A stretch of DNA of 7,352 nucleotides from a virus. Its lineage: Duplodnaviria > Heunggongvirae > Uroviricota > Caudoviricetes. This document shows positions 2,251 through 6,632 of this stretch, in pieces. Every line of letters begins with the position of its first letter. Position 1 is the stretch's first letter. The notes beneath the pieces were generated by a model that saw only the letters and a program-made list of their open reading frames with translations, had not been told where the DNA came from and did not search any database. Location: the IMG/VR virus record IMGVR_UViG_2563366829_000008; one strand, written 5' to 3'. Made by a program: the position numbers and the translations under genes.

Positions 2251-2283
2251 ATCTGAGAAACGATTTTGTCGGAGGAAATTTTA

Positions 2284-3054
2284 ATGGAAACCGTATTTGA
2301 CGCACTGAAAGCAATGGGAAAAGCCACATCGGTAGAACTGGCCGCGCGACTTGATATCAGTCGTGAAGAGGTTCTCAACGAGCTGTGGGAACTCAAAAGA
2401 AAAGGCGTCGTTGATAAAACTGGTCACACCTGGTTTCTGGCTGGCGAAGGTGAATCCCGGGTAACCGAAGAGCGGCCAGTAAAATCTGAAGCACAGGATA
2501 TGCTGACCGGGGAGGTCGAACAAAAAGTTACCGCAGACATGATGATTGAGTTTATCGGTCAGGATGGGGCTAAAACGTGTGAGGAACTGGCGGGTAAGTT
2601 CGGTGTCAGTACTCGCAAGGTTGCTTCCACGCTGGCGGTGGTAACCGCAACGGGGCGGCTGGCACGCGTTAATCAGAACGGTAAATTTCGTTACTGCATG
2701 CCGGGCGATAATTTACCAGCAGAGCCGAAAGCCGCGCTGGTAACGGAAAGTGATGGTAAGGCCTTTCCTCAGCCAGCAGGTGCTGCGTTACCAGTCCGGG
2801 AAGCCGCAACACAGGAAGAAATTAAAACAGAAACTGTGGCGGACATTGTGCAGCCGTTGCCATCGTTTACCGAAACGCAAGCAGATGAGCTGATTTTTCC
2901 GTCCCTTCGCAGGGCAAACCTGGCGCTGCGCAGGGCGAAAAGTGATGTTCAGAAGTGGGAGCGAGTCTGCGCCGCGCTGCGGGAGCTGAACAAGCACCGG
3001 GATATTGTTCGACAGATTACTGATTCTTCCCGCCGTGTTGTATCGGAAAAGTGA
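2284..3054 (+). CDS. Hypothetical phage protein with two tandem winged-helix-like DNA-binding regions
   Basis: ATG 2284 with GGAGG 8 nt upstream (the track's 2266 start is TTG). Two similar segments ([28 protein letters not shown]... and [33 protein letters not shown]...) look like repeated HTH/winged-helix units. No confident family assignment. Confidence 0.65.
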
Positions 3055-3069
3055 TTGCCGGAGGCGCTT

Positions 3070-3495
3070 ATGGCAAAAGTATTTACACAAGAAGAGCGGG
3101 AAAAAATTAAAGGGCAGGTTGTTGAACTTGTACGTCTGAGCGGTCGCGAGACGTTGCGGCAACTGGAAGCCAAGACAGGTGCGACAAGATATCTGATGAG
3201 TGTTCTCGCCAGAGAGCTGGTTGCCAGTGGCGATGTATACAACTCTGGTTACGGGTTATTCCCGTCTGAACAGGCGCGTAAGGACTGGCAAAATGCTCGC
3301 AAAAAACTCTCAAGGGCAAAGGTGAAGAAACCTGCAGTGGTTGATCCGGACCTTATCTGGTCGTTACCAGACGGCGAAATACGCCGCTACGACAGGCGCC
3401 TGAATATAATCTGTCGCGAGTGCCGGAAGAGCGAAGCTATGCAGCGTGTACTGGCATTTTATCAAGGAAATGTTAGGTATTTTAGACGTTACTAG
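3070..3495 (+). CDS. Hypothetical phage protein (nin-region-like small basic protein)
   Basis: ATG 3070 with GGAGG 5 nt upstream, 16 nt after the preceding stop (operon-like packing). 141 aa, basic C-terminal half; no motif recognised. Confidence 0.6.
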   Translation: MAKVFTQEEREKIKGQVVELVRLSGRETLRQLEAKTGATRYLMSVLARELVASGDVYNSGYGLFPSEQARKDWQNARKKLSRAKVKKPAVVDPDLIWSLPDGEIRRYDRRLNIICRECRKSEAMQRVLAFYQGNVRYFRRY

Positions 3496-3648
3496 ATTAA
3501 AGAGCATTAGTTCAGATGTGAATTGACATTTTCATGGCGCAGGGTAGAGCCAGCGTGGTTGTCCGCTTTGCGTCAAAACCAGATATTACCAGATTTAGAC
3601 ATATATTCCCGATAGCCCTGCTCTGATGCTACACTCTGTGCTATTTTC

Positions 3649-4335
3649 ATGACCCCAATAAAAATATTTATGACTATTGCTGATTTCAAACGGCCTAAAT
3701 TGGAGCTCCCAAACGGGGCAAACAAACTACTACTGCACTCTTGCTGTGCTCCATGTTCCGGTGAAGTGATGGAGGCGCTTCAGGCCTCGGGAATCGACTA
3801 CACCATCTTTTTCTACAACCCGAACATTCATCCTCAGAAAGAGTATTTAATTCGTAAGGATGAAAATATTCGCTTTGCTGAACAACACGGCGTGCCGTTT
3901 ATCGATGCTGATTACGACACCGACAACTGGTTTGAACGTGCCAAAGGAATGGAATGGGAGCCTGAGAGGGGGATCCGTTGTACCATGTGTTTTGACATGC
4001 GTTTTGAGCGGACAGCGTTGTACGCTGCTGAAAATGGTTTCAGTGTGATCAGCAGTTCACTGGGCATTTCACGCTGGAAAAATATGCAGCAGGTTAACGA
4101 GTGTGGGCGGCGAGCTGTTGCGCATTATCCGGGTATGGTGTACTGGGATTATAACTGGCGCAAGCAGGGCGGCTCGTCCCGTATGATTGAAATCAGCAAG
4201 CGCGAAAAATTCTATCAGCAGGAATATTGTGGCTGTGTGTATTCTCTGCGCGATACCAATCTACACCGCAAATCTCAGGGACGCCCTCTTATCAAAATTG
4301 GCCAACTCCACTACGGAAAAGAAGAGAAGGAGTGA
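3649..4335 (+). CDS. queH: Epoxyqueuosine reductase QueH (DUF208 family)
   Basis: Contains the motifs I recall as QueH/DUF208 hallmarks: [37 protein letters not shown] and YCGCVYS (conserved Cys cluster). Start uncertain: ATG 3649 or ATG 3670, neither with a strong SD. Confidence 0.85.
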
Positions 4336-4367
4336 TTTTATGGATCACCTTTCTGATTGATTTCATA

Positions 4368-4396: not shown

Positions 4397-4449
4397 GGCT
4401 GCGGGTGCTTGAGGCTATCTGTCTCAGGCATGAACACTGAAAGGCAGAT

Positions 4450-4524
4450 AGAGAAAAGCCCCAGTTAACATTTCGCGTCCTGCAAGACGCTTAACATTAA
4501 TCTGAGGCCCAATCTATGTCTCAC
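4450..4524 (-). ncRNA. sok: Candidate Sok-like antisense RNA covering the mok SD and start codon (inferred)
   Basis: Inferred from hok/sok architecture. Minus-strand promoter-like TTGCCT-N17-TAACCT (plus coordinates 4559..4531) would start transcription near 4524. The antisense transcript spans the mok RBS (GAGG 4504..4507) and ATG 4516, contains the hairpin GCGTCTTGCAGGACGC, and ends in CTGGGGCTTTTCTCT. The -10 is weak; boundaries approximate. Confidence 0.3.
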
Positions 4525-4728
4525 AAATGTAGGTTAGCCTCTTACGTGCCGAAAGGCAAGGGGAAGCAGGCTATGAAGCAGCAAAAGGCGATGTTAATCG
4601 CCCTGATCGTCATCTGTTTAACCGTCATTGTGACGGCACTGGTAACGAGGAAAGACCTCTGCGAGGTACGAATCCGAACCGGCCAGACGGAGGTCGCTGT
4701 CTTCACAGCTTACGAACCTGAGGAGTAA
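4516..4728 (+). CDS. mok: Mok-like reading frame (N-terminally extended, in frame with hok; translational coupling element)
   Basis: 70-aa ORF; ATG 4516 with GAGG 8 nt upstream. It is in frame with hok and has a 19-aa basic extension (MSHKCRLASYVPKGKGKQA), the same layout as E. coli MokC (69 aa with HokC at its C-terminus, recalled). Confidence 0.55.
   Translation: MSHKCRLASYVPKGKGKQAMKQQKAMLIALIVICLTVIVTALVTRKDLCEVRIRTGQTEVAVFTAYEPEE
4573..4728 (+). CDS. hok: Hok/Gef-family type I toxin (HokD/RelF-like small membrane peptide)
   Basis: 51-aa product MKQQKAMLIALIVICLTVIVTALVTRKDLCEVRIRTGQTEVAVFTAYEPEE: a single TM helix plus the conserved CE.R..G..EVA.F.AYE motif of Hok family toxins. As far as I recall it is essentially identical to E. 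coli HokD (RelF). Confidence 0.85.
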   Translation: MKQQKAMLIALIVICLTVIVTALVTRKDLCEVRIRTGQTEVAVFTAYEPEE

Positions 4729-4797
4729 GAGACCCGGCGGGGGAGTAATCTCCCGCCACCTCTGATGTGCCAGGCATCCTCAACGCACCCGCACTTA

Positions 4798-4817
4798 ACC
4801 CGCTTCGGCGGGTTTTT
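4798..4817 (+). terminator. Rho-independent terminator after hok (ACCCGC-TTCG-GCGGGT followed by TTTTT)
   Basis: 6-bp GC-rich stem 4798..4803 / 4808..4813 with a TTCG tetraloop and a 5-T run; sits downstream of the hok stop after the fbi-like element. Confidence 0.75.
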
Positions 4818-4829
4818 GCATTAGTCTGG

Positions 4830-4858
4830 TTGACAAAAATAGAAAAATGCGAAAATAT
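4830..4858 (+). promoter_or_regulatory. Candidate promoter for the two-gene cassette (perfect -35 TTGACA; -10 ambiguous in an A-rich stretch)
   Basis: TTGACA at 4830..4835. Downstream, tgcGAAAATATG (4848..4859) offers a TG-extended GAAAAT or AAATAT -10 at 15-17 nt spacing. Lies between the hok terminator and the ATG at 4894. Confidence 0.35.
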
Positions 4859-4893
4859 GTGGTTTACGAATTCTAAAAAAAGCGAAACTTGAA

Positions 4894-5544
4894 ATGAATG
4901 AAAATCAGTTAGCTCCTTGTTGGGAATTTCAACCTTATCTTGCTGAAAACTATGTTCGCCACTTGTTGGCGGAGATCGCTAACGTACTTGAGCAGCTGTA
5001 CTATCATAAGCACGCATTAGACAGCAACTGGTCTGAAGGTGTAAGGGCTTATGATTGGGTCAGAAATCATCTTATTCAAAATGAAGATGCAATTCCTGGC
5101 CTTGAGATGATTTCCAAGGGGTTGGACTATGTAGTTGCTTTAAATAAAGTTCCGCTACAATTTACCAAAGATTGCATTAATAACCCCAAAAAGAAACATC
5201 GTCTGCGTCGAAATAAAGTAGAGTATGAGCAGCTCTCATTGTTTGGTGATGTTGAGGCTGAGCAAGATATTACATGGCGAGTCATAGCTGAGCCTTTTTT
5301 ATCCGAAGAGGGCGATGGTGAATTAGAGTCCACACTGCCTCGTTGGGAGGTAGCTCTTGTTGGATTTAATACTTATGGTGCTCAGATTAGTATAGTTTCT
5401 CATCAATCTACAGCATCGATGCCGCTTATGCCTCTTGATTATAACACACTCCCTGACGAAGCGGAGATTAATAAGGTGCCTCTTCGTCGGCGTACGAAGG
5501 ATAAAGATTTGGATGTGAGCAGTGATGGAACATCAGGTGAATAA
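4894..5544 (+). CDS. Hypothetical protein, 216 aa, no recognisable domain; first gene of AT-rich cassette (candidate toxin/effector partner)
   Basis: Long ORF in visibly AT-richer DNA than the flanking phage genes. Its stop (5542..5544) lies 20 nt inside the next gene, indicating translational coupling. Acidic C-terminal third; no catalytic motif recognised by eye. Confidence 0.75.
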   Translation: MNENQLAPCWEFQPYLAENYVRHLLAEIANVLEQLYYHKHALDSNWSEGVRAYDWVRNHLIQNEDAIPGLEMISKGLDYVVALNKVPLQFTKDCINNPKKKHRLRRNKVEYEQLSLFGDVEAEQDITWRVIAEPFLSEEGDGELESTLPRWEVALVGFNTYGAQISIVSHQSTASMPLMPLDYNTLPDEAEINKVPLRRRTKDKDLDVSSDGTSGE

Positions 5545-6628
5545 CTTCACTGAGTATCGGGGTGATAAGCTCAAACTAGCGAGAATGGCTGTTGGGCTTT
5601 CTTGTGAAGAGTTAGCCGAAAAAATTGGCAAGACAAAGCAATTCGTTAGCAAACTGGAGAAGGGGTGCAGGCCATCGGAGCAATGTCTTGAGTTAATATC
5701 TTCAGCGCTTATGATTAAGTCCAGTTTTCTTTTTACTGAACGAAAATACGCTCTGGAAAGTGATGTCTGCCATTTTCGGAGTAAGAAGTCCAGGACTCAA
5801 ACGCTGACTAATAGTGTATTGGCCAGGGCTGAGATTCTTAATATTATAATTTCTGCTGTTGAAGGTGAAATCGAATTTCCTGACGTTAACATACCGGAGC
5901 ACCCAGGGGCTGAATTACTTACTCCGAATGATATTGAGCGAGTGGCAGAAGATTGTCGCCGTGCCTGGAATTTAGGTCTTGGCCCTATATCATCAATGGT
6001 TAAATTGGCGGAGAGTTTAGGGGTAATCGTTGCGCATGTTACGGGAGTCGATGATCGTGTTGATGCTTTTACTGTTCACAATAACAGGCCTGTTATCATC
6101 AGGAACAATGTTAAAAAAAGCATATGTAGATTTCGCTCTGATTTAGGTCATGAATTAGGGCATTTAGTAATGCATGAGGGCATAACGACAGGTGATAAAC
6201 TTACGGAATCACAAGCCGATCACTTTTCGAGCGCCTTATTAGTTCCCAGGTTATCTTTCATTAAAGAATTTCCACGAATACGAGGTAAGCAATTCGACTG
6301 GAATGCTCTGGTTGAATTTAAACTTAGATGGAAAATCAGCCTTAAAATGTGTATTTATCGAGCCAGCGCATTAGGCTTATTGACCCAGGAACAGGCAAGA
6401 ACTGGCTATATGCATCTTAATTCCAGAGGGTATACGAGAGTTGAACCTGGTGATGAACTTTTGCGCCCTGAAGAACCCGGCATGCTGGCCGAGGCGATTG
6501 AAATGCTGGATGATGCAACCTGGCTAAGAATTCTTATGAAAACTGGCTTGAGCCAAGATTTAATTCGTGAGTTGTTCTCCATCAACAGACCTATTACAAA
6601 TCCAAGAAATATTTTCCAGATTGTTTGA
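5525..6628 (+). CDS. XRE-family HTH domain fused to ImmA/IrrE-family (COG2856 / M78-like) zinc metallopeptidase domain
   Basis: N-terminus LKLARMAVGLSCEELAEKIGKTKQFVSKLEKG is a classic XRE HTH. HELGH (HExxH) at 6149..6163 followed by E...ADHFSSALLVP matches the ImmA/IrrE signature. ATG 5525 (the track's 5522 is GTG). Confidence 0.85.
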   Translation: MEHQVNNFTEYRGDKLKLARMAVGLSCEELAEKIGKTKQFVSKLEKGCRPSEQCLELISSALMIKSSFLFTERKYALESDVCHFRSKKSRTQTLTNSVLARAEILNIIISAVEGEIEFPDVNIPEHPGAELLTPNDIERVAEDCRRAWNLGLGPISSMVKLAESLGVIVAHVTGVDDRVDAFTVHNNRPVIIRNNVKKSICRFRSDLGHELGHLVMHEGITTGDKLTESQADHFSSALLVPRLSFIKEFPRIRGKQFDWNALVEFKLRWKISLKMCIYRASALGLLTQEQARTGYMHLNSRGYTRVEPGDELLRPEEPGMLAEAIEMLDDATWLRILMKTGLSQDLIRELFSINRPITNPRNIFQIV

Positions 6629-6632
6629 GTAT

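Follow-up and report, generated by a model that had tools for sequence, protein, structure and literature searches.

A QueH-family gene on lambdoid prophages of Escherichia coli and its probable role in cobalamin-independent queuosine formation

The stretch of DNA analysed in this paper, a window of 7,352 nt from a lambdoid prophage of Escherichia coli, carries a gene whose product belongs to the QueH family by sequence, conserved residues and fold. This product is predicted to be a functional QueH, a cobalamin-independent iron-sulfur epoxyqueuosine reductase, which in E. coli would convert epoxyqueuosine (oQ) to queuosine (Q) at position 34 of tRNA-Tyr, -His, -Asn and -Asp. E. coli always possesses the B12-dependent enzyme QueG and, as is well established, is unable to make B12 de novo, so that the prophage QueH most likely helps when cobalamin is scarce. 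We assign a probability of roughly 70% to the reading that an active prophage QueH lets lysogens finish queuosine without B12, completing Q-tRNA under cobalamin limitation and being redundant when B12 is available.

The identity of the protein as QueH is not new, since exactly this protein is already named QueH in RefSeq and the family is known. What appears to be unreported is the vehicle, an ordinary enzyme being carried as temperate-phage cargo. No account of QueH on phages or prophages was found in the literature searched, most subscription-journal papers lying outside its coverage. A survey of viral queuosine-pathway genes recorded no homologues of QueA, QueG or QueH in the viruses analysed (Hutinet et al. 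2019, PMC6884629).

Start codon and family of the encoded protein

In the ORF list of the window, a 228-aa ORF is found on the + strand at 3649-4335, which is exactly the span that the first-pass annotation had assigned to a prophage-borne queH. The ORF and its end at 4335 stand, but the start has to be moved. In an alignment of the upstream region of 6 copies, the Rac-type copy has ATT in place of the ATG at 3649 and an in-frame TAA after it, and the ATG at 3670 is invariant. RefSeq also begins WP_000150294.1, 'epoxyqueuosine reductase QueH', at 3670. Because the ATG at 3649 is not conserved and that at 3670 is common to all copies and to RefSeq, the latter is taken as the true start of queH. 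The coding sequence therefore occupies 3670-4335 on the + strand (221 aa plus stop), and the 7-codon in-frame extension at 3649-3669, which belongs to the longest ORF, is probably untranslated. The GC content of queH is 48% and does not stand out from that of the neighbour genes.

An HMM comparison had been proposed as a check on the assignment to QueH, and its outcome supports the assignment strongly. In a Pfam profile search of the window ORFs, PF02677 (QueH, DUF208) matched the queH product with E=1.1e-65 and 221.5 bits against a cut-off of 23.5. This match, which spans positions 1-174 of the 175 in the profile, is far beyond chance. A scan of 10 window ORFs with NCBIfam gave no model matching the queH product, a result that neither supports nor contradicts the assignment. 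The nearest relative with a solved structure is the QueH of Thermotoga maritima (PDB 7lc5, E=7.8e-22).

Conserved residues and fold agree with the profile match. Homologues of the queH product were searched for among 1.84 billion cluster representatives, and conservation was read from an alignment of the window protein with 39 homologues of 35-86% identity. Throughout this set, 16 columns are without variation, and the window protein matches all of them (16/16): C25, C26, C29, N52, Y59, R62, E99, R103, C104, C107, R111, K137, Q184, C187, G188 and C189 in the 221-aa numbering. The cysteine motifs of QueH are all present, CCAPC (C25, C26, C29; the CCxPC pattern) near the N-terminus, RCxxC (C104, C107) in the middle of the protein and YCGC (C187, C189) near the C-terminus. 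In work by Li et al. from 2021, QueH cysteines are said to bind a [4Fe-4S] cluster and an adjacent iron.

The cysteines of the window protein align with those of T. maritima QueH. When the T. maritima sequence is added to the alignment, the sole cysteine column that varies is C29, which corresponds to Asp13 in T. maritima. Since C29 is invariant in the 39 homologues, CCAPC represents the family norm and T. maritima the exception. Entries for C9S and D13N mutants of T. maritima QueH are held in the PDB, indicating that the first motif has been studied functionally.

An AlphaFold2 model of the window protein, built on the homologue alignment, reached a pLDDT of 95.7 and a pTM of 0.91. The best 5 matches in a Foldseek search against the PDB were all T. 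maritima QueH, with target-normalised TM scores of 0.90-0.92 and rmsd values of 1.2-2.0 A, and the first of them was 7lc5 (TM 0.92, rmsd 1.2 A). TtuA was the next fold (E about 5e-5), nine orders of magnitude weaker in E-value. It can be seen that the window protein has the QueH fold, with an adenine-nucleotide-alpha-hydrolase-like Rossmann core, and that it shares with T. maritima QueH (COG1636) the constellation of CC, CxxC and CGC cysteines.

Prophage setting and limits of the queH module

The whole window is 100% identical to the chromosomes of several E. coli strains. Its copy in MS 196-1 lies in a lambdoid prophage integrated beside ompW. The order of this prophage begins with integrase, excisionase, exonuclease, dicB, repressor and cro-like genes, an IS3 element, YdaT and a DnaT-like protein. 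It continues through a P-like protein, DUF1627, DUF977, QueH, hokD and two cassette genes to DUF968, RusA, the Q antiterminator, tRNA-Ile/Arg/Arg, lysis genes, terminase, portal and capsid. The prophage location claimed in the first-pass annotation is thus borne out by integrase and excisionase at ompW on one side and by Q, lysis, terminase, portal and capsid genes on the other. The accessory-cargo setting was also recognised correctly, queH standing after the replication module and beside hok/sok and a RosmerTA pair. The prophage of MS 196-1 is in decay: its exonuclease gene has an internal stop, and its terminase, portal, decoration and capsid genes are frameshifted, yet queH is intact in it.

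Two further features of this prophage lie apart from queH. Positions 1 to about 230 of the window are the end of an IS3-family element inserted between a ydaS-like gene and ydaT, and in many genomes that are otherwise identical the match starts no earlier than window position 231. Outside the window, further cargo is found between the Q antiterminator and the tRNA-Ile/Arg/Arg cluster, namely the gene of a serine/threonine protein kinase and, after it, that of a PP2C phosphatase.

The constant upstream neighbour of queH in every annotated context is the DUF977 gene (3055-3495, + strand; PF06163, E=7.4e-28), the last gene of the replication module. DUF1627 (262 aa) and DUF977 (146 aa) form a conserved tandem at 2266-3495 that closes this module. 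The profile phrog_142, 'Ren-like exclusion protein', is matched strongly by DUF977 and weakly by DUF1627, and weak Pfam matches give DUF1627 two winged-helix-like HTH regions.

Downstream of queH, a hok/sok type I toxin-antitoxin locus occupies 4403-4728 on the + strand. It consists of the sok RNA at 4403-4578 (Rfam RF01794, 120.5 bits, E=7.5e-28) and the hokD coding sequence at 4573-4728 (Pfam PF01848 Hok/gef, E=3e-23; named hokD in RefSeq). The longest ORF at this place, 4516-4728, is an in-frame N-terminal extension of hokD. A terminator scan placed a terminator-like hairpin followed by a T run at 4797-4814 (+ strand), after hok. Next comes a RosmerTA-type defence pair at 4894-6628 (+ strand), previously described simply as a cassette, which comprises rmrT at 4894-5544 and rmrA at 5522-6628. 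Both were matched in PADLOC, RmrT with E=4.6e-25 and RmrA with E=6.2e-105. RmrT has 216 aa and is without a Pfam match; RmrA has 368 aa with HTH and M78-peptidase regions.

Comparison of prophages indicates that queH is a discrete insertion between conserved modules, found in some related phages and missing from others. Homology of the window with the Rac-type prophage is limited to 3621-4339, from 49 bp 5' of the start codon to 4 bp past the stop, so that queH moves as a tight single-gene unit. With Qin-type prophages the homology extends from 3554 to 4341. The segment from about 4819 to 6632, which contains RosmerTA, is absent from the Qin-type and O104:H4 copies, and RosmerTA is an independent insertion outside the queH module.

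A conserved leader at 3621-3669 (+ strand), beginning where the Rac-type homology begins, accompanies queH in every prophage background, and its block CTCTGATGCTACAC is invariant in 6/6 copies. The alignment can be read as holding two candidates for extended -10 elements, at 3627-3635 (TGcTACACT) and at 3639-3647 (TGcTATTTT), one of which is without its final T in the Rac-type copy. They are weak and would be putative promoter elements at most. A standard sigma-70 consensus scan detected no promoter on the + strand 5' of queH. The terminator scan found no terminator-like site from DUF977 to hok, which leaves queH open to transcription from upstream. A lysogen could express queH from a weak promoter of its own, from the early-right transcript of the phage, or from both. 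Riboswitch control was considered and rejected: Rfam at E<=1 matched only sok, with no cobalamin or preQ1 riboswitch before queH, and the fold of the leader RNA is no better than that of shuffles (z=-1.07). Nothing in the sequence, therefore, ties queH expression to B12 status.

In its sharp homology boundaries, its single-gene size and its retention in defective prophages, queH resembles the lambdoid morons. It occupies a variable cargo slot that follows the replication module and precedes the Q antiterminator, and in which hok/sok, relBE, RosmerTA and Kiwa-like genes also occur. It differs from the morons in showing no clear promoter or terminator of its own in the scan, and in what it encodes, an enzyme of tRNA modification instead of a toxin or a function in exclusion or defence.

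Distribution, loss from K-12 and origin

Among 5,426 complete E. coli genomes, queH was found in 995 (18%). The gene is thus less unusual than had been implied at first, and it is known by the name QueH in RefSeq. Identity is at least 99% in 707 genomes, 95-99% in 181 and 90-95% in 107, and the gene is nearly always chromosomal and single-copy. At least 80% of its length is held by 985 of the 995 genomes. In a spread sample of 60 records, 59 match at coverage of at least 97% and 1 at 65%; the feature under every listed match is called 'epoxyqueuosine reductase QueH', a check that concerned the name, with pseudogene flags outside it. A survey of related prophages, suggested earlier as a further step, identified carriers in at least 3 backgrounds: the ompW-site type, which includes the window and O104:H4, the Qin type, and the Rac type, with recE, racC, kilR, sieB, racR, ydaS/T/U/V and trkG.

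The gene is also present in viral collections. The isolated phage HannyBb carries queH (PP925841, 33011-33697), where it is listed as hypothetical, and 215 IMG/VR viral contigs encode a QueH relative. Neighbourhoods were counted in the best 80 of these 215 contigs, all 100% identical at the protein level. Within this set, DUF977 lies at most 700 bp upstream of queH in 73 of 75 loci and hok at most 700 bp downstream in 53 of 76, RosmerTA is found in only about seven contigs, and the replication modules vary. In PHROGs the queH product falls into phrog_3217 (E=1.7e-138), labelled 'unknown function'. The profile has 188 positions, the first of which corresponds to residue 34 of the 221-aa protein, so that the CCAPC motif falls outside it; the starts were probably mis-called. 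Two records named 'Acinetobacter phage MD-2021a' (CAKLQH020000001.1 and CAKLQF020000001.1, 328-379 kb) encode a QueH of 77.7% identity annotated 'putative prophage protein'; they were set aside as QueH phages, their size and naming making phage status doubtful.

Laboratory strains differ in their content of queH. The Qin-type gene is found in REL606, E. coli B, ATCC 11303, E. coli C and ATCC 8739 (Crooks), 100% identical over 2.2 kb. BL21 assemblies are absent among the best 60 matches to the E. coli B allele, from which no conclusion on BL21 is drawn. REL606 is the ancestor of the long-term evolution experiment, the medium of which is to our knowledge without B12. In another Qin-type prophage with queH, a hypothetical gene and a 'Kiwa anti-phage protein KwaB-like' gene replace hok and RosmerTA after queH, and the position thus behaves as a variable defence island.

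A tblastn search of the Qin region of K-12 found no QueH. Alignment of the cryptic Qin of K-12 with a fuller Qin-type prophage breaks off midway through ydaT and is taken up again ahead of ydfW. Relative to the fuller prophage, it has a clean 5.95-kb deletion, corresponding to 7193-13147 of the fuller sequence and to the junction 19358/19359 of K-12 Qin. The deleted segment comprises the end of ydaT, an O-like gene, DUF977, queH, a hypothetical gene, the KwaB-like gene and an IS. K-12 has thus lost queH through the Qin deletion. The gene ydfX looks like a remnant at the junction.

Outside the prophage cluster, the closest homologues, at 79-90% aa identity, are annotated QueH proteins of Enterobacterales, among them Citrobacter koseri, Klebsiella, E. 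albertii, Erwinia, Gibbsiella, Photorhabdus, Providencia, Proteus and others. Wherever their surroundings were inspected, these genes have non-phage neighbourhoods, in part among housekeeping genes: tmcA, purC, bamC and dapA in Providencia, benE and fimbrial genes in Photorhabdus, and purL in Erwinia sp. On a further contig, a QueH of 90% identity lies beside moaA, LysR-type and dehydrogenase genes, again in a non-phage neighbourhood, and it clusters with the QueH of Citrobacter koseri, Klebsiella and E. albertii. The simplest history would be that a lambdoid phage took up the chromosomal queH of another Enterobacterales member, as a single-gene module corresponding to window 3621-4339, and that modular exchange then spread it, so as to bring it to its present cargo slot just after the replication module. 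Compared to chromosomal QueH, the gene described here thus has a temperate phage or prophage as its vehicle instead of a housekeeping locus, and its host already possesses QueG.

Redundancy with QueG and the beneficiary of prophage QueH

QueH is the non-orthologous alternative to QueG (PMC5372724), and the reduction of oQ in E. coli needs cobalamin, according to the account of Frey et al. 1988 given in PMC4646009. The starting premise that K-12 uses QueG, with QueH as its non-orthologous alternative, agrees with both sources. With the K-12 gene b4166 as query and thresholds of at least 95% identity and at least 80% coverage, queG was present in all 5,426 complete E. coli genomes. The prophage queH thus adds a second enzyme and never replaces QueG. 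Complementation of queuosine modification by the prophage, one of the two effects first suggested for this gene, can for this reason be conditional at most, for example when B12 is lacking. The predicted reaction of both enzymes is the same, from oQ34-tRNA to Q34-tRNA (PMC5372724, PMC4646009). Their folds and cofactor sets are unrelated, and queG (5,426/5,426) is a core gene while queH (995/5,426) is accessory and prophage-borne.

A comparable pair is known in Staphylococcus aureus, in which QueG and QueH coexist with different cofactors and expression patterns, and which the authors read as an adaptation to cofactor availability (PMC13443448). E. coli lysogens would likewise combine, within a single cell, two enzymes for the last step that duplicate each other but differ in the cofactors they require. 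The pair in S. aureus is presented as characteristic of the species; in E. coli the second enzyme varies among strains and comes with prophages.

Pairwise Nei-Gojobori comparisons of the ompW-, Qin- and Rac-type alleles gave dN/dS values of 0.046-0.094 at dS up to 0.44, which shows that QueH has been under strong constraint during long prophage residence. A low dN/dS shows constraint on the protein and does not show who benefits. The gene is intact not only in the decaying prophage of MS 196-1 but also in the Qin remnant of E. coli B, and its retention in prophages unable to make particles points to selection at the level of the host.

A different beneficiary would be the phage itself, if early-right expression of QueH in lytic growth kept Q-tRNA mature or altered the decoding of NAU/NAC codons. 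Such a role would be favoured by the position of queH on the same strand as the replication genes and directly 3' of them, with no terminator-like site between, so that early transcription should read through queH, and by its presence in the isolated phage HannyBb. The tRNA turnover within one lytic cycle is limited, which counts against it, as does the intact state of queH, under strong purifying selection, in prophages that cannot form particles. Codon usage gives no support for a phage codon demand either: NAU makes up 0.558 of the NAY codons in prophage genes versus 0.633 in flanking host genes, in a small sample. A benefit to the phage is accordingly considered unlikely, and the manipulation of NAU/NAC decoding that had been suggested earlier is speculation.

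Another substrate or role for QueH, such as 7-deazaguanine in DNA or a part in defence or counter-defence, would fit the neighbours in the cargo slot, which are defence or addiction modules (hok/sok and RosmerTA here, KwaB-like Kiwa elsewhere, relBE in Qin). Phages with 7-deazaguanine gene sets (FolE/QueD/QueE/QueC and DpdA) also carry queuosine-pathway genes, and they put preQ0-type bases into DNA via DpdA (Hutinet et al. 2019, PMC6884629). The queH prophage, by comparison, has only the tRNA-specific enzyme of the last step. DpdA/TGT, FolE, QueD, QueE and QueC were found neither in 10 window ORFs scanned with Pfam, nor in 10 scanned with NCBIfam, nor in the annotated prophage contexts, and modification of DNA with 7-deazaguanine was rejected for the window on this ground. 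A part of QueH in a defence system was likewise rejected. QueH gave no PADLOC match at E<=0.01, although the adjoining RmrT and RmrA match strongly, and the queH module and the defence cassettes are independent insertions. Moreover, the protein shares 79-90% identity with the chromosomal QueH of other Enterobacterales and lacks none of the invariant residues, which makes a role other than that of QueH highly improbable.

That queH is a neutral passenger on successful prophages, with no selected function, would suit the presence of QueG in every E. coli genome and the loss of queH from K-12 without obvious harm, but there is very little chance of this, since neutral drift would not give dN/dS of 0.05-0.09 with dS reaching 0.44, and the gene is so rarely truncated among its carriers.

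Cobalamin-independent completion of queuosine for the lysogen is therefore preferred. How far this can be generalised is a more evenly balanced matter. We give even odds to the wider proposition that prophage QueH is a widespread, selected function of lysogenic conversion which frees queuosine from B12 in about a fifth of E. coli strains. If so, the strains concerned would include REL606, E. coli B, C, Crooks, ST131 and O104:H4 strains, with K-12 left without queH.

A prophage-delivered, strain-variable second oQ reductase and its loss from K-12 would be mildly surprising to a specialist in tRNA modification. The impact is modest, since the enzyme is ordinary, oQ and Q are not established to differ physiologically, and no new mechanism is implied. 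The literature searched yielded no phenotype that distinguishes oQ from Q. Phage resources could be corrected, as phrog_3217 is labelled 'unknown function' and the HannyBb gene hypothetical.

If QueH is active, prophage content sets whether E. coli strains need B12 for the completion of queuosine. The oQ/Q state of tRNA, together with any linked decoding or stress phenotypes, would in that case differ with the prophage content of the strain. This would matter for reading the phenotypes of queG mutants and measurements of oQ and Q across strains, K-12, the basis of most work on queuosine biosynthesis in E. coli, being without queH. Temperate phages would then be vectors of tRNA-modification capacity, and a tRNA-modification enzyme would join the host-beneficial genes that they spread.
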